NCBI GenBank assembly: GCA_036403155.1
Contig: DASWRM010000010.1
Coordinates: forward strand, 33,618-97,617
DNA: 64,000 nt
Direction of reading: 5' to 3'
DNA from: Gaiellales bacterium
GTDB taxonomy: Bacteria > Actinomycetota > Thermoleophilia > Gaiellales > JAICJC01
The notes beneath the pieces are model-generated. The model made no database searches and had not been told where the DNA came from. It worked only from the letters and a program-made list of their open reading frames with translations. Positions 37,999 through 46,628 of the stretch are shown here, piece after piece; position 1 is the stretch's first letter, and each line of letters begins with the position of its first letter. Both the position numbers and the translations under genes were made by a program.

Positions 37999-39444
37999 CT
38001 ACTCGGTGGAGATGAAGACGCTCTTCAGCTCGGTGTTGTGCTCCAGCGCCTGCATGCCGAGCTCCTTCCCGACGCCGGACTGCTTGTAGCCGCCGAACGG
38101 CGTCTGCACGAAGACGCTCGAGTTGGTGTTGACGCCCAGGACGCCGGTCCTGAGCGCGCGGGCCACCCGGAGCTGCCGCGCGCCGTCGCGCGTCCACAGC
38201 GATCCGGATAGCCCGTAGGGCGTGTCGTTTGCGATTTCGACGGCTTCCCGCTCCGTGTCGAACGGGATCACCGTCACGACCGGTCCGAAGATCTCCTCGC
38301 GCGCGACGGTCATCTGGTTGGTGGCGTCGTCGAGCACGACCGGGCGGAGGAAGAAGCCCCGACCGAGCTCGCCGTTCGGCCGGTCGCCGCCGGTGACGAT
38401 CCGGGCCCCCTCGTCGACGCCCGTGCGGATGTAGCGCTCGACGGTCTCACGCTGCCCGGCCGAGATCATCGGCCCGACCTGTGTGTCGGGATCCTCCGGC
38501 ATGCCGACCCGCATCGCCCGGGTCGTGGCGGCGTAGCGCTCCACGAGCTCGTCCTTGACCGAGCGCTCGACGATCAGGCGCGACCGGGCGCAGCAGTCCT
38601 GCCCGCAGTTCTCGAACACCGCGAACGGCGCCAGCCGCCCCACCTTGTCGAGGTCGGCATCCGCGAACACCACGCACGCCGACTTGCCGCCCAGCTCCAG
38701 CGTCACGCGCTTGATGGTGGCCGCGGCCTTGCGGGCGATCGACCCGCCCACCTCCGTGGAGCCCGTGAAGCCGATCTTACCGACGGCTGGACGCCCGACC
38801 AGGGCGTCGCCGACGGTGCTGCCCGGCCCGGGGACGACGTTCAGCGCGCCGGCCGGCAGGCCCGCCTCGCCCGCCAGCTCGGCGTAGCGCAGCACGGAAA
38901 GGGGCGTCAGGCTGGCCGGCTTCAGCACGACCGTGTTGCCCGCGGCCAGCGCGGGCGCGATCTTCCAGTTCGCGATGTTGAGGGGGAAGTTCCAGGGCGT
39001 GATCAGGCCGACGACCCCGATCGGCTCGCGGAAGGTCATGGCCACCCCGTCGCGCTCGACCGGGATCGTGTGCCCGAAGAACTTGTCGACGGCGCCGGCG
39101 TAGTAGCGGATCACGTCGACGATCATGGCGAGCTGCCCGCGCGCGTCCGAGATCGGCATGCCGACGTTCCGGCACTCGAGCAGCGCCAACTCCTCGGCGT
39201 GCTCTTCCACGAGCGCCGCGAACCGGTGCATCACCCGCCCCCGCGTGACGGGGGACAGCGCGCCCCACCGCTCGTACGCTGCAACCGCCGCGGCGACCGC
39301 CCGGTCGATGTCCTCGACGCCGCCCTCCGCCACGGTCGCGAGCTGCTCGGCCGTCGCGGGGTTGACCACGGCGAACGTCCTGCCCTCCGCGGCGGCGACG
39401 CGATCGCCGGCGATCAGCAGCCCCTCGGCGGCGGTCGCGGTCAT
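37999..39444 (-). CDS. NAD(P)-dependent aldehyde dehydrogenase
   Basis: Start at ATG 39444 (MTATAAEGLL). ALDH motifs are present: ELGGKSACVV, the catalytic Cys region FENCGQDCCARSR, and PFGGYKQSGVG. Confidence 0.9.
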   Translation of the reverse strand: MTATAAEGLLIAGDRVAAAEGRTFAVVNPATAEQLATVAEGGVEDIDRAVAAAVAAYERWGALSPVTRGRVMHRFAALVEEHAEELALLECRNVGMPISDARGQLAMIVDVIRYYAGAVDKFFGHTIPVERDGVAMTFREPIGVVGLITPWNFPLNIANWKIAPALAAGNTVVLKPASLTPLSVLRYAELAGEAGLPAGALNVVPGPGSTVGDALVGRPAVGKIGFTGSTEVGGSIARKAAATIKRVTLELGGKSACVVFADADLDKVGRLAPFAVFENCGQDCCARSRLIVERSVKDELVERYAATTRAMRVGMPEDPDTQVGPMISAGQRETVERYIRTGVDEGARIVTGGDRPNGELGRGFFLRPVVLDDATNQMTVAREEIFGPVVTVIPFDTEREAVEIANDTPYGLSGSLWTRDGARQLRVARALRTGVLGVNTNSSVFVQTPFGGYKQSGVGKELGMQALEHNTELKSVFISTE

Positions 39445-39454
39445 GGCGTGGATC

Positions 39455-40831
39455 CTACAGCCGCTCGAAGCCGCGGAACTTCTCCCAGTCGGTGACCGCG
39501 GCGTCGAACGCCCGCTGCTCGGTGCGCGCGTAGTGGAGGTAGTGGTCGACCACCTCACCGCCGAACGCCTCGCGCGCCAGCTCGGAGCCCTCGAGTCCCG
39601 CGATCGCGTCCCGCAGCGAGGTCGGGATGCGCGGCTTCTCGGGCGGCGCGGTGTAGGCGTTGCCACGGTATGGCTCCTCGAGCGCCAGCTGCTCGTCGAT
39701 GCCCTTGAGCCCGGCGGCGATCATCGCGGCGAATGCGAGATACGGGTTGCAGTCGGCGCCGGGCATGCGGTTCTCGAGCCGCAGGCCGTTGCCATGTCCG
39801 ACGACGCGCAGCGCGCACGTCCGGTTGTCGGTGTCCCACACCAGCGTCGTGGGCGCGAACGACCCGGACGCGAAGCGCTTGTAGGAGTTGACGTTCGGGG
39901 CGAAGAAGTACGTCAGCTCCCGGGTGTACGCCAGCTGACCGGCGATGAAGTGCCTGAACGTGTCGCTCATGCCCTGCCCCTCCTCCCCGGGGAAGAGGCT
40001 CCCGTCGGCGTCCCAGAAGCTGCAGTGGATGTGGCAGGAGTTGCCCTCGCGCTCGTCCCACTTCGCCATGAAGCTGATGGAGCTGCCGTGCTGCCAGGCG
40101 ATCTCGCGCGCGCCGTTCTTGTAGATGCTGTGGTTGTCGGCCATGGTGAGGGCGTCCGCGTAGCGGAAGTTGACCTCGTGCTGGCCGAAGTTGCACTCGC
40201 CCTTCGAATCCTCCACGGGGACGCCGGCGGCCGCCATCCCGAGCCGGATCGGCCGGATCACGTCTTCGACGACGGTCGTGCCGAAGATCGAGTAGTCGAC
40301 GTTGTAGGGGTTGGCACCCGTGAGGCCGTGGTACCGCTTGGCGCGGGCCTCGTCGTAGGTCTCGCGGAACAGCATGAACTCGAGCTCGGAGCCGACGTTC
40401 GCCGTCCACCCGCGCTGGGCCAGGCGGTCGAGCTGGCGGCGCAGGATCTGGCGTGGCGAGGCCACCACCGGCCGGCCGTCCTGCCACTCGAGGTCCGCGA
40501 CCACCAGTGCGGTCGCCTCGAGCCATGGAACTCGGCGCAGCGTCGCCATGTCCGGCTTGAAGACGAAGTCGCCGTACCCGGTGTCCCAGGAGCCCATCTG
40601 GAACCCCTGCACGGTCGCCATGTCGACGTCGACGGTCAGCAGGTAGTAGCACCCCTCCGCTCCGTGCTCGGCGATCTCCGACAGGAAGAACGGCGCGTGC
40701 AGCCGCTTGCCCATCAGACGTCCCTGCATGTCGGTCATCACCAGCAGGACGGTGTCGATGTGCCCGCCCTCGACCTCGCCGCGTAGCTCATCGATCGTCA
40801 CGTGCGCCCCTCCGTCGTGGATTGCGGCCAT
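39455..40831 (-). CDS. Glutamine synthetase family protein, gamma-glutamyl-polyamine synthetase-like (PuuA/GlnA3-like)
   Basis: GS catalytic-domain motifs are present (GSELEFMLF, KGECNFGQHEVNF, NSCHIHCSFW, NSYKR). AGGAG lies 7 nt upstream of the ATG. Confidence 0.8.
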   Translation of the reverse strand: MAAIHDGGAHVTIDELRGEVEGGHIDTVLLVMTDMQGRLMGKRLHAPFFLSEIAEHGAEGCYYLLTVDVDMATVQGFQMGSWDTGYGDFVFKPDMATLRRVPWLEATALVVADLEWQDGRPVVASPRQILRRQLDRLAQRGWTANVGSELEFMLFRETYDEARAKRYHGLTGANPYNVDYSIFGTTVVEDVIRPIRLGMAAAGVPVEDSKGECNFGQHEVNFRYADALTMADNHSIYKNGAREIAWQHGSSISFMAKWDEREGNSCHIHCSFWDADGSLFPGEEGQGMSDTFRHFIAGQLAYTRELTYFFAPNVNSYKRFASGSFAPTTLVWDTDNRTCALRVVGHGNGLRLENRMPGADCNPYLAFAAMIAAGLKGIDEQLALEEPYRGNAYTAPPEKPRIPTSLRDAIAGLEGSELAREAFGGEVVDHYLHYARTEQRAFDAAVTDWEKFRGFERL

Positions 40832-40849
40832 TCATATACTCCTGCCGGT

Positions 40850-41566
40850 ATGCACCGCAACCGCCCGCTGATCGGCATCACGGCGTACGAGGTGCCGGCC
40901 AGCTTCTCGCACTGGCGTGACGTGGCGAGCACCATGGTGCCGGCCGGGTACGCGCACGCCGTCGCGGCGGCCGGTGGCATGCCGGTGGTGATCCCTCCGT
41001 TCGATGGCACGTCGGAGCTGCTCGACCGTCTGGACGGCCTGGTGCTCAGCGGTGGCTCTGACATCGACCCCGAGCTGTACGGGCAGGAGCGCCGGCCGGA
41101 GACCGTGGGCATCGTCCGCCGCCGCGACGACTCGGAGCTCGAGCTGCTGCATGCCGCGCTCGGACGCGGCACGCCGGTGCTGGCGATCTGCCGGGGGATG
41201 CAGCTGCTGAACGTGGCATGTGGCGGCACGCTGGTGCAGCACCTGGCCGAGTCGCCCGGCGTGGTGCACAAGGGCCCGCCCGGGACGTTCGCGACCCACG
41301 ACGTCTCGGTGGGCGGCGGCACGCGGTTGCATGGGCTGGTTGGCGACGCCGTGGAGGTGCACTCCTGCCATCACCAGGGCATCGACCGCCCGGGCGATGG
41401 CGTCGTCGTGACCGCCCACGCGTCGGACGGGGTCGTCGAGGGCATCGAGCTCGACGGTGAGCGCTTTGCGGTCGGCGTGCTGTGGCACCCGGAAGAGCAC
41501 GCGGAGCTGGGCGGTCCGCTGTTTCGCGGCCTGGTCGAGGCAACCCAGCCCGCTGCGGCTGTCTGA
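40850..41566 (+). CDS. Class-I glutamine amidotransferase, peptidase C26 / gamma-glutamyl-GABA hydrolase-like (PuuD-like)
   Basis: Start at ATG 40850 (MHRNRPLIGITAY). The nucleophile elbow is AICRGMQLLN and the His region is GVLWHPE. Confidence 0.8.
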   Translation: MHRNRPLIGITAYEVPASFSHWRDVASTMVPAGYAHAVAAAGGMPVVIPPFDGTSELLDRLDGLVLSGGSDIDPELYGQERRPETVGIVRRRDDSELELLHAALGRGTPVLAICRGMQLLNVACGGTLVQHLAESPGVVHKGPPGTFATHDVSVGGGTRLHGLVGDAVEVHSCHHQGIDRPGDGVVVTAHASDGVVEGIELDGERFAVGVLWHPEEHAELGGPLFRGLVEATQPAAAV

Positions 41567-41577
41567 GGGAGCCGGCG

Positions 41578-41958
41578 TCAGCCGGCCGGCCGCCGCTGTG
41601 CCGCGCGGATCGCCTCGATCAGCTCGTCCAGCCCCACGCCCTTCTTGAGGCAGCTCGTCGCTCCGGCGGCCAGCGCCGCCTCGATCATCTGCGGCTCGTC
41701 GTAGGCCGACAGCACGACCACCGGCATCGCCCAGGCGGCGCGCGCGATCTGCTCGGTCGCCTCGATCCCGTCGACGTTGGGCATGCGCATGTCCATGACC
41801 ACCACGTCGGGCGTGGACTGCTCGGCCAGCGTCACAGCCTCGGCGCCGTCGCTGGCCTCCGCCACCACGGTCATGCCGGCCTCTGCCAGCGCGTCCCGGA
41901 GAACGCCCCGGAGCAGGGCGTTGTCCTCCGCGATCAGGATCCGAATCGACTCCGTCAC
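41578..41958 (-). CDS. Single-domain CheY-like response regulator
   Basis: Start at GTG 41958 (VTESIRILIAEDN). Canonical receiver residues are present (ED pair, VVMDMRMP, VLSAY, CLKKG). Confidence 0.85.
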   Translation of the reverse strand: MTESIRILIAEDNALLRGVLRDALAEAGMTVVAEASDGAEAVTLAEQSTPDVVVMDMRMPNVDGIEATEQIARAAWAMPVVVLSAYDEPQMIEAALAAGATSCLKKGVGLDELIEAIRAAQRRPAG

Positions 41959-42004
41959 GTTGGTCGGCAAGCCTACGTGGTCGTGCGGCGAGCGTGCAAC
42001 CGGT

Positions 42005-42724
42005 TCAGCCCTGCTCGGCCGGATACAGCTGCTCGACCCCGTCCTGGGCGAACCGGCCCGCGGCCGCCGGCCCCAGTCCGCGGGTGCGGGCCAGGCAGTA
42101 GAGCGCACCGAACGTGTCGCCGGCGCCCGTCGGGTCGGCCAGCCGCCTCCCGCTCCCGGCGATGACGTGCCGCCGACCATCCGCGGTCACGACGGCGCCG
42201 CGCTCGGCGCGCGTGACCAGCAGCTCGGCGGCGTCGAGGCCCGGCGAGGCCTCCGCCTCGGCCTCGTTCACCTTGAGGGCGGCGACCCCGGCCAGGCTCG
42301 CGGCCGGGATCGCGCGCAGGGACACCGGCCCGGCGTCCGCGCCTCTGGCCAGTCCCTGTCCGTCGAGGCACAGAAGGTGCCCCGCGTCCACGAGCAGCTG
42401 CACCGTCTCGGCCGGGAAATCGCCGGCCGTCTGTCCGCCGAGCAGCACCCACCGGCACCCGGCGAGCCGGGGAAGCAGCGCTCGCGCGTCCTCCGGGAGG
42501 AGCGGCTCGGGCACCGTGACGATCTCCTGTTCGGTGCCCGACGCCGTGTGCCGGAGGCGTGAGACCAGCCGGCCCGTCTCGATCGCGACCGGCATTGCGC
42601 CCACCGCGCGCAGCGCCCGCCCGGCGTAGTGCGGCGTGCCACCCGGACGGCGCTTCGCCGGGCCGTCTCCGAGCGTGATCTCGTCGACCGTGGCCGGGCC
42701 GAGCACTCCCACCAGCTCGCTCAC
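42005..42724 (-). CDS. PfkB-family (ribokinase-like) kinase, short form (239 aa)
   Basis: The start is GTG 42724, in a GTGA overlap with the upstream kinase stop. It has the GG dipeptide (RRPGGTPHYAG) and the ATP/anion-hole motif DPTGAGDTF. Confidence 0.75.
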   Translation of the reverse strand: MSELVGVLGPATVDEITLGDGPAKRRPGGTPHYAGRALRAVGAMPVAIETGRLVSRLRHTASGTEQEIVTVPEPLLPEDARALLPRLAGCRWVLLGGQTAGDFPAETVQLLVDAGHLLCLDGQGLARGADAGPVSLRAIPAASLAGVAALKVNEAEAEASPGLDAAELLVTRAERGAVVTADGRRHVIAGSGRRLADPTGAGDTFGALYCLARTRGLGPAAAGRFAQDGVEQLYPAEQG

Positions 42725-43368
42725 CGCGCGGGCGCCGTCAGCCGCACCCCGACCGGCTCGCCTTCCCGCACCTCGAGCCTCCCGCCGATGCGGGCGGCTC
42801 GCTCCTGGAGCAGGAGCTCGGTGCCGCGCTCGTGACCCGCGCACCCATGCGCCCGCACCTCGAGCGCGACCGTCCCCGGGGACGCGCTGAGCGCGATCTC
42901 GATCGACCGCGCGCCTGCGCGCGCCGCTTCCAGGCACGATTCCCTCGCCACCTGGTAGATCGCCGTGTCGCGGTCGGGGTCGCCCGCGGGCCACGTTCCG
43001 TCGACCCCGAGGGAGGCGCGGACATGGTGCTCCGCCTCGAGCGTCTCGACGAGCGAGCTGAGCGCCTGCAGCAGCCCGCGCTGCTCCATGACCACCGGAT
43101 GCAGGCCGCCGGACATCCGGCGCAGGTCGTCCGCCGCCTCGGCCGCGAGCTGCTCGAGCCGTGCCAGGCCGGCACGCGCCCCCTCGACGTCTCCCTGCTC
43201 GAGCGCGTGGCGGGCGCCGTCGGCCACGAGCCGGATCGCCGTCATCACCTGTTGTGGCCCGTCGTGCAGGCGGTGCGCAAGGTCCTGTCGCTCGGCGTCG
43301 GCCGTGCGCAGGACGTGGTCGAGCAGCACGCCGCGATCGTTCGCCTCACCCGTCCGTCGGCGGAACAT
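42721..43368 (-). CDS. Sensor-less HisKA_3-type histidine kinase-like protein (215 aa)
   Basis: Start at ATG 43368. The H-box DLAHRLHDGPQQ comes almost immediately after the N-terminus, with no TM or sensor domain. By eye, the C-terminal HATPase-like region has non-consensus N, G1 and G2 boxes. Confidence 0.75.
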   Translation of the reverse strand: MFRRRTGEANDRGVLLDHVLRTADAERQDLAHRLHDGPQQVMTAIRLVADGARHALEQGDVEGARAGLARLEQLAAEAADDLRRMSGGLHPVVMEQRGLLQALSSLVETLEAEHHVRASLGVDGTWPAGDPDRDTAIYQVARESCLEAARAGARSIEIALSASPGTVALEVRAHGCAGHERGTELLLQERAARIGGRLEVREGEPVGVRLTAPAR

Positions 43369-44036
43369 CAATCGATCAGCGCGTACCGGAGCGCCAGTGC
43401 CACCGCCTGCGTCCGGGTGTCCGCCTCGAGCTTCGTCATCGCGTTGCGGACGTGCGTGCGGACGGTCTCCGGGCTGATGAAGAGCCTGGACGCGATCTCC
43501 GGGTTGGAGTAGCCGTTGGCGAGCAGTCCCAGGATCTCCCGCTCGCGCGTGGAGAGTGCCGGGAGCCGTTCCGTCGCCTTGGGAGACACCAGCTCGGACG
43601 CGAGCGTCGGATCCACGTATGCACCGCCTTCGGCCACGCGCTTCACCGCGCGCACGATGTCGTCGGGAGGCGCGTCCTTGAGCACGTAGCCGCGCGCCCC
43701 GCAATCGAGGCCCTCAGCCAGCAGTCCGCGCTCGCCGTGTGCGGTGTAGAGGATCACCGCCATCCCCGGATGCGCCGCCGTGATCCGGCGCGTCGCCTCG
43801 AACCCGTCCATGCCGCGCATGCGCACGTCCATGAGGATCACATCCGGTCGCCTGCGCTCGGCCATCTCGATCGCGGCATCGCCGTTCGAGCTCTCGCCGA
43901 TCACCGCGATCTCCCGGTCGCGGGCGAGGATCATCTTCACGCCCTCCCGGACAGCCGCGTGGTCGTCGACGATGAGAACCCGGACCTGCTCGGTCTTCCG
44001 ATCCTCGGCCGTCTCAGAATCCCGGCTGGAGCTCAT
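43368..44036 (-). CDS. NarL/FixJ-family response regulator
   Basis: Canonical receiver (VLIVDDHAAV, VILMDVRMRGMDG, VLKDAP) plus a GerE HTH (LSTREREILGLLANGYSNPEIASRLFISPETVRTHVRNAMTKL). Confidence 0.9.
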   Translation of the reverse strand: MSSSRDSETAEDRKTEQVRVLIVDDHAAVREGVKMILARDREIAVIGESSNGDAAIEMAERRRPDVILMDVRMRGMDGFEATRRITAAHPGMAVILYTAHGERGLLAEGLDCGARGYVLKDAPPDDIVRAVKRVAEGGAYVDPTLASELVSPKATERLPALSTREREILGLLANGYSNPEIASRLFISPETVRTHVRNAMTKLEADTRTQAVALALRYALID

Positions 44037-44086
44037 GGCCCTCCAAATCGTGCTGGCGCGGGGGAACGATTGGAAACACCCTCCCG

Positions 44087-44092
44087 TACAAT
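44087..44092 (+). promoter_or_regulatory. -10 box TACAAT 7 nt upstream of ATG 44100 (leaderless-type)
   Basis: Read from the sequence. The same TACAAT-N7-ATG arrangement occurs upstream of hemB. Confidence 0.45.
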
Positions 44093-44099
44093 CGCCCGC

Positions 44100-45449
44100 A
44101 TGTCAACCGCGCGACGCACGGCGCTGGTCTCGGTTCTGGCGGCGCTGGCCCTGACCCTCACGAAGCTGGTCGTCGGGCTCGCCACGTCAAGCCTCGGCAT
44201 CCTCGCGGAGGCAGCCCACTCCGGCCTCGATGCGGCCGCCGCGCTGCTCTCGCTGTACGCGGTGGGCGTGGCCGAGCGCCCACCCGACGCCCAGCACCAG
44301 TACGGGCACGGCAAGGCGCAGAACCTGGCCGCGCTGACCGAGTCGGTCGTGCTCGCAGGCGTCGCGATCTGGATCGGCGTCGAGGCGGTGCTGCGGCTCC
44401 GCTCCGGCGGGGGCGACGTCCAGGCGCACTGGTACGCGTTCGTCCTGCTCGGTGGCGTGCTGGCCGTGGACGCGGGTCGCTCGATCCTGTCCTACCGCGT
44501 CGGCCGGAGGGAGCGGAACGCGGCGCTGGTGGCGAGCGCGCTGCACTTCGCGTCGGACTTCGCCGGCACGACGGCCGTGATCGTCGGCCTGGTGGCGGTC
44601 GCCGCCGGCTATCCGCGCGGCGACGCCGTCGCGGCGCTGACCGTCGCCGTGCTCGTGCTGGTTGCGGCCCTGCGCCTCGCGGCACGCAACGTCGACACGC
44701 TCATGGACCGCGCGCCGAGCGGCCTGACGAGGATGATCGAGCAGGCCGCACGGGCGGTGCCGGGCGTGACCGATGTGCGGTCGGTGCGCGTCCGCGAGGC
44801 CGCCGGCGAGAGCTTCGCGGACGTGGTCATCGGCGTGTCCCGGCTGGCGGGGCTCGAGCGCAGCCACCAGACGATGGACGACGTGGAGGAGGCCGTCCGC
44901 TCGCGGATCGGCCCCGCACAGGTCACGGTGCACGTCGAGCCCAGCGCGGGCGGCGAGGCGCCGAACGAGCGCGTCGCCGCGGCCGCCCTCCGCGTCCCGG
45001 GTGTTGTCGAAACGCACAACATCACCGTCCTCGAGGGCTCGGACGGCCGGGCGATCACGCTGCACGTCCGGCTCGACCAGGACATGCCGATGCGCGAGGC
45101 CGCGGACATCGTCGAGCGGCTCAAGGACGAGATCCGCACGGAGTTCGGCGTTGCGCGCGTGTACGCACACGTGGAGCCGTCCGCGCTCGGTGCGCACCCG
45201 GCGCGCGACGTGGCGGTGGAGGAGCCGGACGTCGTCGCGGCGGCGACGCGCGCCGTGCGGTCGCTTGCGGGGGACGCCGCCGAGGTGGTCGTCTACAGGC
45301 AGGGGGAGCGGCTGCTCGTCGTCACGTCGCTGCCGGCGCGGGCCGGCCAGACCGTGCGCGAGGCGCACAATCTCGCCAGCCGGGTCGAGGACGCCGTGCG
45401 CGACGCCCTCGACCCGGTCGACGATGTGATCGTCGAAGTCCTGAGGTAG
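44100..45449 (+). CDS. Cation diffusion facilitator (CDF) transporter with three tandem C-terminal cytoplasmic domains
   Basis: Start at ATG 44100 (MSTARRTALVSVL). HxxxD pairs lie in TM2 (HSGLD) and TM5 (HFASD). Three successive alpha-beta-beta-alpha-beta repeats follow; the first two end in ..VHVEP and ..AHVEP and the third in ..VIVEV. Confidence 0.85.
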   Translation: MSTARRTALVSVLAALALTLTKLVVGLATSSLGILAEAAHSGLDAAAALLSLYAVGVAERPPDAQHQYGHGKAQNLAALTESVVLAGVAIWIGVEAVLRLRSGGGDVQAHWYAFVLLGGVLAVDAGRSILSYRVGRRERNAALVASALHFASDFAGTTAVIVGLVAVAAGYPRGDAVAALTVAVLVLVAALRLAARNVDTLMDRAPSGLTRMIEQAARAVPGVTDVRSVRVREAAGESFADVVIGVSRLAGLERSHQTMDDVEEAVRSRIGPAQVTVHVEPSAGGEAPNERVAAAALRVPGVVETHNITVLEGSDGRAITLHVRLDQDMPMREAADIVERLKDEIRTEFGVARVYAHVEPSALGAHPARDVAVEEPDVVAAATRAVRSLAGDAAEVVVYRQGERLLVVTSLPARAGQTVREAHNLASRVEDAVRDALDPVDDVIVEVLR

Positions 45450-46628
45450 CTACCGCGCGGCCAGGGTGACCGTCACGCTCAGCTGCTTGCCGTCGCGAAG
45501 GATGCCGAGCTGCACCGTGTCGCCGGGCTTCTTCGCGCTGATGGCGCCCGACAGGTCGTCGAACGTGCGGATCTGCTTCCCGTCGACGGTGGTGATGATG
45601 TCACCGCCGAGCGTCAGCGTCTCGCCGTTGATGGTTGCCTGCGTCGAGCCTCCGTGCAGCCCCGCCTTGGCGGCCGGCGAGCCGGACTCCACCTTGCCGA
45701 CCAGGACGCCGTGGTCGACGTTGAGGTTCAGCGCCTTCGCGAGGCTGGGAGTGACCGGGGAGCCGAGGATGCCCAGGTAGGTGTGCTCGGCCTTGCCGTT
45801 GGCGATGATCTGGTCAGCCACGTTCTTCACCGTGTTCACCGGAACCGCGAACCCGATGCCGATGCTGCCGCTCTGAGGGTTGTTCGGATCGTCGGACAGA
45901 ATCTGGCTGGTGATGCCGATCACCTGACCGCGGCCGTTCAGGAGCGGGCCGCCGGAGTTGCCGTGGTTGATCGCCGCGTCGGTCTGGATCGCGCCGCGGA
46001 TCTGCACGTTGCCCTGGAGCGACCCGATGTCGCGGTTGACGGCCGAGACGATGCCGGTGGTCGCGGTGCGGGTCTCGCCGAGCGGATTGCCGATGGCGAC
46101 GACAGGATCGCCCACCCGCACCTCCGAGGAGTTGCCGAGCGGCAGCGGGGTGAGCGCCTGCGCCGGTGCATCGACCTGCAGGACGGCGACGTCCGTGCTG
46201 CGGTCGGCGCCGAGCACCTTCGCCGTGTAGGTCTTGGCCGTGGTCTCGCTGCCGAAGGCGACCTGCACCTTGCTCGCGTTCAGCACGACGTGCGCGTTGG
46301 TGAGGATGTGGCCGCTCCGGTCGATCACGAACCCGGATCCGAGCGCCTGAGCCTGCTGCTTCTGAGGGGCGCCGAACGGGTTGAGCGGGTCGGAGGTGGT
46401 CGTCGTGGTGGTGGCCGTCACGACCACGACGCCGGGCGCGTCCTTGCGGTAGATCTGGTTGACCGAGAGTCCCTGGCGCGGCGATGCCGAGACGGCGCTG
46501 GCCGCCGGGGAGGTGGTGCGGATGATGGTGCGTGACGCGGGATGGGTCGAGTCAACCGCGAATGCCGAGGCGCCGCCGGCGACGACCGCCGTCACGACGA
46601 TGGCTATGGCTTTGGGGTACGTGTTCAT
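45450..46628 (-). CDS. htrA: HtrA/DegP-family serine protease (trypsin-like plus PDZ)
   Basis: Catalytic motifs are present (TNAHVV, GNSGGPLL) with a C-terminal PDZ domain and an N-terminal TM anchor. Confidence 0.9.
   Translation of the reverse strand: MNTYPKAIAIVVTAVVAGGASAFAVDSTHPASRTIIRTTSPAASAVSASPRQGLSVNQIYRKDAPGVVVVTATTTTTTSDPLNPFGAPQKQQAQALGSGFVIDRSGHILTNAHVVLNASKVQVAFGSETTAKTYTAKVLGADRSTDVAVLQVDAPAQALTPLPLGNSSEVRVGDPVVAIGNPLGETRTATTGIVSAVNRDIGSLQGNVQIRGAIQTDAAINHGNSGGPLLNGRGQVIGITSQILSDDPNNPQSGSIGIGFAVPVNTVKNVADQIIANGKAEHTYLGILGSPVTPSLAKALNLNVDHGVLVGKVESGSPAAKAGLHGGSTQATINGETLTLGGDIITTVDGKQIRTFDDLSGAISAKKPGDTVQLGILRDGKQLSVTVTLAAR

Follow-up and report, generated by a model that had tools for sequence, protein, structure and literature searches.

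The stretch of DNA analysed here (hereafter referred to as the window) comprises 64,000 nucleotides from an uncultured Gaiellales bacterium (assembly GCA_036403155.1, contig DASWRM010000010.1, positions 33,618 to 97,617) and carries on its minus strand an operon of four genes, which encode a response regulator (P0001), a protein with the HisKA_3 domain of histidine kinases (P0002), a short ribokinase-family protein (P0003) and a single-domain receiver (P0004). This arrangement is not due to chance, as it recurs throughout one bacterial family, and the operon in the window is a derived form of a four-protein signalling module specific to that family. Its HisKA_3 protein keeps the histidine-bearing helical hairpin, while the catalytic domain is degenerate, and the gene that follows codes for a protein of the myo-inositol kinase branch. 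The sequence features, the distribution and the evolution of the four genes are described below together with their probable biological roles.

Organisation of the operon

The first gene (positions 43368-44036 of the window) specifies a NarL/FixJ-type response regulator of 222 amino acids (aa) with Pfam matches to Response_reg (E-value 7e-29) and GerE (2e-20), in which the residues of the phospho-Asp pocket (D24/D25, D70, T97 and K119) can be read from the translation. It is followed by the gene of the soluble 215-aa HisKA_3 protein (42721-43368), by that of the 239-aa ribokinase-family protein (42005-42724; Pfam PfkB) and by that of the 126-aa receiver (41578-41958; Pfam Response_reg, 9e-31), which starts with GTG at 41958. 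The translation of the receiver shows the acidic residues E11/D12, together with D55, S83 and the Lys of an LKKG motif. Both receiver proteins are well conserved across the family, the identities being 86-97% for P0001 and 82-96% for P0004.

The TGA stop codon of the regulator gene and the ATG of the P0002 gene overlap by one base at 43368 (TGATG), the stop codon of the P0002 gene overlaps the GTG start of the P0003 gene as GTGA (42721-42724), and a gap of 46 nucleotides (41959-42004) separates the P0003 and P0004 genes. The gene order, coordinates, junctions and lengths thus agree with those given in a first-pass annotation of the window, which had been made from the letters of the sequence. 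The G+C content of the operon region is 70-77%. A scan of positions 41400-44250 for promoters and terminators found none, with a consensus that is not suited to the host organism.

The HisKA_3 protein retains the hairpin and carries a degenerate catalytic domain

The HisKA_3 match (PF07730; residues 26-92, E-value 5.4e-11) is the sole Pfam domain of P0002, and the helical hairpin (DHp) to which it belongs extends over residues 20-92 (43093-43311), as delineated by Pfam and an AlphaFold2 model. The H-box histidine is His35 (codon at 43264-43266), followed by Asp36 and Gln40 in the motif HDxxxQ; all three residues are invariant among 82 aligned homologues, and the helix positions 34-47 are nearly so. 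The remainder of the protein, residues 93-215 and the stop codon (42721-43092), corresponds in the alignment to intact orthologues to a degenerate catalytic (CA)-like domain. No Pfam match to HATPase_c was obtained for P0002 even at E<=1, while the orthologues L016, L018 and L019 from sister genera score 29.6-40.2 bits against the same model. Aligned with such orthologues, P0002 has Glu147 at the site of the N-box Asn and Ala151 at that of the next His, Ala173 at the site of the G1 Asp (VRAHGCAG as against VEDRGGGL) and RGTE (residues 181-184) at the site of the G2 box, GxG(L/I); the ATP lid between G1 and G2 is also shorter than in the intact orthologues. Among close relatives of P0002 the N-box Asn is replaced by E, S, H, Q, D or G, and the position is therefore unconstrained. 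The three departures from the ATP-site consensus that the first-pass annotation had noted by eye are thus borne out.

The same annotation had described the protein as lacking a sensor, which also holds: no further Pfam domain besides HisKA_3 was detected in P0002, and no hydrophobic segment was found, the highest Kyte-Doolittle mean over 19 residues being 0.86 (by hydropathy only, with no dedicated predictor of transmembrane segments). The longer orthologues reach maxima of 2.3-2.9 over 19 residues and have two N-terminal hydrophobic segments a few residues apart, again judged by hydropathy only.

The AlphaFold2 model of P0002 (mean pLDDT 86.7) comprises two long helices (residues 5-57 and 61-88), with the end of helix 2 level with His35, and a small alpha/beta lobe that has been kept. 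The best Foldseek matches of the model are DesK structures (E-value 1e-9), and ChpT (4fpp; 6.7e-7) and the pseudokinase DivL (4q20) are matched as well. A phmmer search of the solved structures with the P0002 sequence gave weak matches of the DHp to DesK (E-values 0.4-0.6) and none for the C-terminal half. The best NCBIfam matches are the HisKA_3 kinases MctS, UhpB and NarQ, all of them far below the cut-offs. Membership of P0002 in the ChpT, Spo0B or HWE/HisKA_2 families was not supported, HisKA_3 alone being found in the Pfam scan.

Judged by its sequence, P0002 cannot be filed among the working histidine kinases, because the HATPase_c domain that defines the class is absent, and its autokinase activity has presumably been lost. 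The parts that it keeps are those needed for a phosphotransfer or phosphatase protein.

The ribokinase-family protein belongs to the myo-inositol kinase branch

P0003 matches the Pfam PfkB model with 27.8 bits (cut-off 25.8) and, as had been noted earlier, retains the GG and GAGD motifs (G28-G29 and G200-A201-G202-D203, the latter of the GXGD type and encoded at 42116-42127), in addition to N153 and E156 of the NXXE motif. The best Foldseek matches of its AlphaFold2 model (mean pLDDT 96.8) are TM0415 and the myo-inositol 3-kinase of Thermococcus kodakarensis, and the same two enzymes are matched by a profile of 108 homologues with E-values of 1.7e-43 and 1.5e-30, respectively, the value for the next PfkB enzyme being 1e-25. 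The inositol contacts of the Thermococcus enzyme, MI3K_TK, are listed as D12, G26, Q136, R140 and D219 (PMC5931981). They map in a profile alignment to 3w4s onto D14, G29, Q123, R127 and D203 of P0003. These five residues, together with the ATP-type GAGD, NxxE and Lys151, are kept in all 54 family loci with near-full PfkB genes in a single frame, eight loci with split or cut genes being excluded; the inositol-contact residues are also common to the free-standing PfkB paralogues. All the residues with which the solved relatives bind myo-inositol are thus present in the acceptor pocket, which points to a small-molecule substrate, and P0003 looks like an inositol kinase as far as sequence and model can tell.

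The solved enzymes differ from P0003 in several respects. TM0415 (1vk4/5ysp) is the pyrophosphate-dependent myo-inositol kinase of Thermotoga maritima, whereas P0003 has GAGD in place of the RxGRGD signature, yet has Lys151 at the site of TM0415 K171. Pyrophosphate as the donor of P0003 was ruled out, since the signature is absent and the motif reads P-T-G-A-G-D; a small Ala in the GAGD donor motif is typical of ATP users. Unlike the solved inositol kinases, including the T. kodakarensis enzyme (3w4s/4xf7), P0003 is short, has a trimmed lid region (about 26 residues fewer than in the free-standing paralogues) and is encoded inside a two-component operon, its substrate being a predicted one.

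The P0003 family is small: a search of 1.84 billion cluster representatives yielded 308 at E<=0.001, of which 11 reached E<=1e-30. The neighbours of six free-standing paralogues are mixed (PAP2, LPG_synthase_TM twice, a purine/cytosine permease and a class II aldolase), and no clear clue to the substrate emerged from these six neighbourhoods. Two distant PfkB relatives among the metagenome cluster representatives are fused to other enzymes, P0205 (619 aa) to a CDP-alcohol phosphatidyltransferase and P0178 (520 aa) to a HAD phosphatase, which is in keeping with inositol phosphate as the product and may be a sign that this PfkB branch supplies it for the synthesis of lipid head groups.

Distribution and evolutionary series within the family

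The distribution of the operon was examined in a class-wide sample of 201 genomes and a family sample of 65 genomes from seven genera. Matches to P0002 with more than 45% identity are confined, in the class-wide sample, to the family of the window; outside it the best matches are generic HisKA_3 kinases (28-37% identity), and in the three outside-family genomes that have a PfkB paralogue too (G025, G030 and G038) the two genes are not adjacent. Within the family, the operon was matched in 60 of the 65 genomes and in all seven genera, the five unmatched genomes being 54-84% complete. The 60 matching genomes provided 63 loci, 60 of which hold the H-box gene. Two of the three loci without the upstream part (L079 and L080) end at contig ends. 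The third (L054, in G240, a 65%-complete genome) has the PfkB and receiver genes with a transporter gene directly before PfkB; the regulator and H-box genes were not found upstream, and may have been deleted.

The 60 H-box genes fall into three classes. A HATPase_c domain is detected at E<=0.01 in 32 (genera g2 and g7), 30 of them above the cut-off and two (L066 and L069) below it; within this class L043 is frameshifted past the H-box and L077 reads through into PfkB. A CA-like region without a HATPase_c match, as in the window, is present in 20 (g1, g3, g4 and g5), namely 18 genes tested against Pfam, the frameshifted L004 and a read-through gene of 519 aa (L044). The CA region is missing altogether in the remaining eight, which belong to g6 except for L002 and L003 (g1) and include five hairpin-only genes of 76-80 aa (L017, L046, L047, L049 and L074), two clean in-frame fusions of the DHp to PfkB (L002 and L003) and one fusion-like frameshifted gene (L075). 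Genome G236 holds two copies of the hairpin-only module (L046 and L047) on different contigs.

A maximum likelihood tree of PfkB (24 rows, with six free-standing paralogues as the outgroup) places the operon-linked genes in one clade (support 99/98). The PfkB genes of all degenerate and fused forms make up one sub-clade (100/99), in which the DHp-PfkB fusions are sister to the PfkB gene of the window (94/90), and the hairpin-only form lies in the other sub-clade, beside intact kinases. Because the degenerate and the hairpin-only forms sit in separate clades, the CA domain became dispensable more than once; catalytic function was therefore lost at least twice, and the remnant was later deleted in the nearest relatives of the window. 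Phosphotransfer proteins of the PhyT, ChpT and Spo0B types are known only as finished products, whereas in this one family several stages appear to coexist: a membrane-anchored kinase in which the CA domain is intact, a degenerate CA domain, a soluble form, a hairpin of 76-80 residues and an enzyme-fused hairpin. Such naturally staged proteins make the transition from kinase to phosphotransferase directly testable.

Coupling of the PfkB gene to the hairpin and the receiver

The PfkB gene lies directly 3' of the H-box gene and on the same strand in 59 of the 60 loci, the exception (L078) being cut by a contig end, and the receiver gene follows in 61 of the 63. The linkage noted in the first-pass annotation is thus kept in the relatives. 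In L012, L014, L015 and L021 about 850 nucleotides separate PfkB from the receiver gene, as against 20-110 elsewhere, and an extra gene may have been inserted there.

Two kinds of natural fusion are found. In-frame DHp-PfkB genes occur in two genomes (L002 and L003) and in three metagenome clusters (P0090, P0091 and P0093), and in these the PfkB domain begins 8-10 residues past the LxP that ends helix 2, a joint that coincides with the start point of the CA domain in P0002. A single open frame with both the PfkB and the receiver Pfam domains is present in L019, L065, L068 and L069 (g2) and in the metagenome cluster P0109. Three further fusion candidates (P0202, P0108 and P0193) were dropped as frameshifted or wrong-frame gene calls.

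The linkage in 59 of the 60 loci and the two kinds of fusion strongly suggest a functional tie between the HisKA_3 protein and the PfkB gene, and this part of the earlier proposal stands; its other part, that PfkB might supply the phosphoryl chemistry, received no direct support: PfkB is also found at 32 loci with an intact CA domain and has a full myo-inositol pocket. P0003 may also bind P0002 physically, a point on which the predicted complex of two copies of P0002 with P0003 (score 0.00) weighs neither way. A scan of genome contigs for the locus with P0003 alone returned one irrelevant match (35%) in a metagenome-assembled genome of Alcanivorax. No description of a PfkB protein or an inositol kinase as a partner of a histidine kinase was found in a survey of literature listings. 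An obligatory inositol-kinase-like partner with two natural kinds of fusion would represent a new type of accessory protein or 'trigger enzyme' for two-component signalling, and suggests, if only as a hint, that gene regulation is connected with inositol metabolism in deep-branching Actinobacteria.

Selective constraint on the four genes

The ratios of non-synonymous to synonymous substitution rates (dN/dS) were compared among ten species of the genus of the window (45 pairs, with dS of 0.2-0.5 in the closest ones). The median is 0.05 for the regulator (0.01-0.03 in the closest pairs) and 0.07 for the lone receiver; it rises to 0.35 for the hairpin, to 0.48 for PfkB (about 0.21 in the closest pairs) and to 0.63 for the degenerate lobe of P0002 (0.20-0.26), the ratios of distant pairs being inflated, since synonymous rates are probably underestimated at such a G+C content. 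Thus, the kinase remnant and PfkB are still under purifying selection, which is far looser than that on the receivers. With its active-site residues kept in 54 of 54 loci as well, the PfkB enzyme is not in decay.

Comparison with known systems

The closest precedent is PhyT (formerly PhyP) of Sphingomonas melonis, which has a degenerate ATPase domain and a conserved phospho-His, is encoded next to the regulator gene and, with the single-domain receiver SdrG as donor, transfers phosphate to PhyR (PMC5898713). P0002 is likewise a kinase-like protein that is encoded beside a regulator, keeps the H-box His and has a degenerate ATPase domain. PhyT, however, belongs to the HWE/HisKA_2 family, is anchored in the membrane, has a periplasmic domain and signals into a partner switch of a sigma factor, whereas P0002 is by its sequence a soluble HisKA_3 protein, has its receiver in the same operon and is coupled or fused to an inositol-kinase-like enzyme. 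A related system is reportedly that of PhyK/LovK with MrrA in Caulobacter (PMC5964349).

The DesK/NarL-family HisKA_3 kinases share with P0002 the H-box with HDxxxQ and a NarL-type regulator as partner, and provide the best fold match; unlike them, P0002 lacks the N, G1 and G2 boxes, a HATPase_c match and transmembrane segments. Spo0B of Bacillus subtilis is a dimeric His-bearing helical bundle with a CA-like lobe that does not bind ATP. ChpT of Caulobacter crescentus, which acts between CckA and CtrA/CpdR and has a DNA-binding regulator as well as a single-domain receiver as its targets, is similarly reported to be a dimeric His-bearing bundle with a CA-like lobe without ATP binding (PMC3433190). 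Both proteins belong to other sequence families and neither has an enzyme partner; unlike them, P0002 arose recently from a HisKA_3 kinase, of which intact orthologues persist in sister genera.

Probable biological role of the module

The reading favoured here, albeit tentatively, is that P0002 is a phosphotransfer hub of the PhyT/ChpT kind, which connects the two receivers and to which the inositol-kinase-like enzyme is bound as a co-sensor. In this lineage P0002 has lost the membrane anchor and, by its sequence, ATP binding, whereas the dimeric His-bearing hairpin with HDxxxQ is kept, as is a structural remnant of the CA domain. The protein would no longer autophosphorylate but would transfer phosphoryl groups by way of its histidine, and could act as a phosphatase too, with both receivers of the operon as partners. 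A kinase encoded elsewhere would phosphorylate P0004, from which the phosphoryl group would pass to His35 of P0002 and on to P0001, while P0003, the gene of which is translationally coupled to that of the hub, would be bound to the hub and report the availability of ATP and of myo-inositol or a similar polyol in the manner of a 'trigger enzyme'. We infer both the phosphotransfer between the receivers and this direction of information flow; the relay is favoured because of the precedent of PhyT, in which a protein with a degenerate ATPase domain mediates the transfer from SdrG to PhyR. The earlier suggestion of a phosphotransfer protein with two receivers as outputs fits both PhyT and ChpT.

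Ten other HisKA_3 matches are present in the same genome, at least four of the loci being without a NarL-type regulator within about 3.5 kilobases (tblastn), and candidate outside kinases therefore exist. Candidate orphan HisKA_3 kinases are located at C42:50935, C7:133694, C48:25613, C49:39830 and C65:22193 (contigs of G000).

Several points weigh against the phosphotransfer hub. The histidine kinase-like phosphotransferases known to us belong to the HWE/HisKA_2, ChpT and Spo0B families of DHp domains, and not to HisKA_3. A phosphatase-only role would account for the HDxxxQ motif just as well, and the source kinase of the relay is so far represented by candidate loci. P0003 could also be an output controlled by the receiver and not an input, which the PfkB-receiver fusions fit equally. 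Finally, the HisKA_3 and PfkB genes have evolved at 5-10 times the rate of the two receivers, and frameshifts are present in some assemblies (in the histidine kinase gene of G006 and in the PfkB genes of G007 and G012); together these could mean that the function has become relaxed and has not been refined into a new one.

These last observations are shared with the view that the kinase is decaying, according to which its gene would be a relic, the receivers would be run by other kinases, PfkB would be a co-transcribed enzyme of inositol salvage and the fusions would be by-products of the overlapping stop and start codons. The slower evolution of the receivers (dN/dS 0.05-0.07 against 0.35-0.63) agrees with it, as do additional frameshifts in G272 and G238, the fact that an insertion or deletion of one nucleotide at the GTGA junction suffices to fuse the frames, and the read-through open reading frames of histidine kinase and PfkB in which the CA region is still there (L044 and L077). 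Decay is nevertheless considered unlikely, since even the remnants of 76-80 aa show no change in the His, the HDxxxQ motif or helix 34-47, the ratio in close pairs (0.2) indicates that purifying selection still acts on the pseudo-CA domain and PfkB, the gene order is kept in seven of seven genera and the two kinds of fusion (with the hairpin and with the receiver) each occur in several genomes. Alternatively, P0002 could be a brake, namely a phosphatase or sequestering partner of both receivers by virtue of HDxxxQ, with PfkB as its modulator, while the receivers would obtain their phosphoryl groups from other kinases or from acetyl phosphate. HDxxxQ reportedly serves phosphatase activity in HisKA_3 kinases (the work on NarX), and its invariance in the 82 homologues and the dispensability of the CA domain are in keeping with such a role. 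Strict retention of the His is, however, not needed for phosphatase activity in several kinases, and the single-domain receiver in the operon, kept at 82-96% identity, would be left unexplained. PhyT itself is instructive on both sides: it was at first held to be a phosphatase, yet was without phosphatase activity in vitro (PMC5898713). A role as a brake only is regarded as rather unlikely, though a little less so than decay.

The boldest alternative is that the ribokinase-fold protein P0003 has replaced the Bergerat-fold domain and loads His35 using ATP, in trans in the window and in cis in the fusions. It derives some appeal from the fusion joint, which lies about 8-10 residues past the end of helix 2 and exactly at the former start of the CA domain, from the position of that helix end level with His35 in the model, from the ATP-type GAGD, NxxE and Lys151 kept in all loci, and from the repeated loss of the CA domain in this family alone. 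The presence of PfkB beside 32 intact kinases argues that it was not recruited as a substitute for the CA domain, and the acceptor pocket keeps all five inositol-binding residues, which the free-standing paralogues have as well. We know of no ribokinase-family enzyme that phosphorylates a protein histidine, and such a replacement is highly improbable; if true, it would mean that a histidine kinase here runs on entirely different catalytic machinery, possibly under the control of inositol, and would define a new class of histidine kinases.

Flanking genes

A gene for a cation-diffusion-facilitator transporter of 449 aa (44100-45449, plus strand) is the divergent neighbour of the regulator gene in every family locus with enough flank, and may be a target of the P0001 regulator. 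The 63-nucleotide spacer between the two genes (44037-44099), aligned for 11 family loci, holds an invariant ATTGTA and a conserved TTTCCAATCGTT block. Read on the transporter strand, the former is TACAAT and ends 7 nucleotides before the transporter ATG, which suggests that the transporter transcript is leaderless.

Downstream of the operon (37999-41566), synteny across the family extends to genes for an aldehyde dehydrogenase, a glutamine-synthetase-like protein and a gamma-glutamyl hydrolase (PuuD-like), which taken together resemble a polyamine or gamma-glutamylation pathway. On the far side of the transporter gene (45450-46628, minus strand), the translation indicates an HtrA-like serine protease gene, which is kept beside the transporter in several loci.

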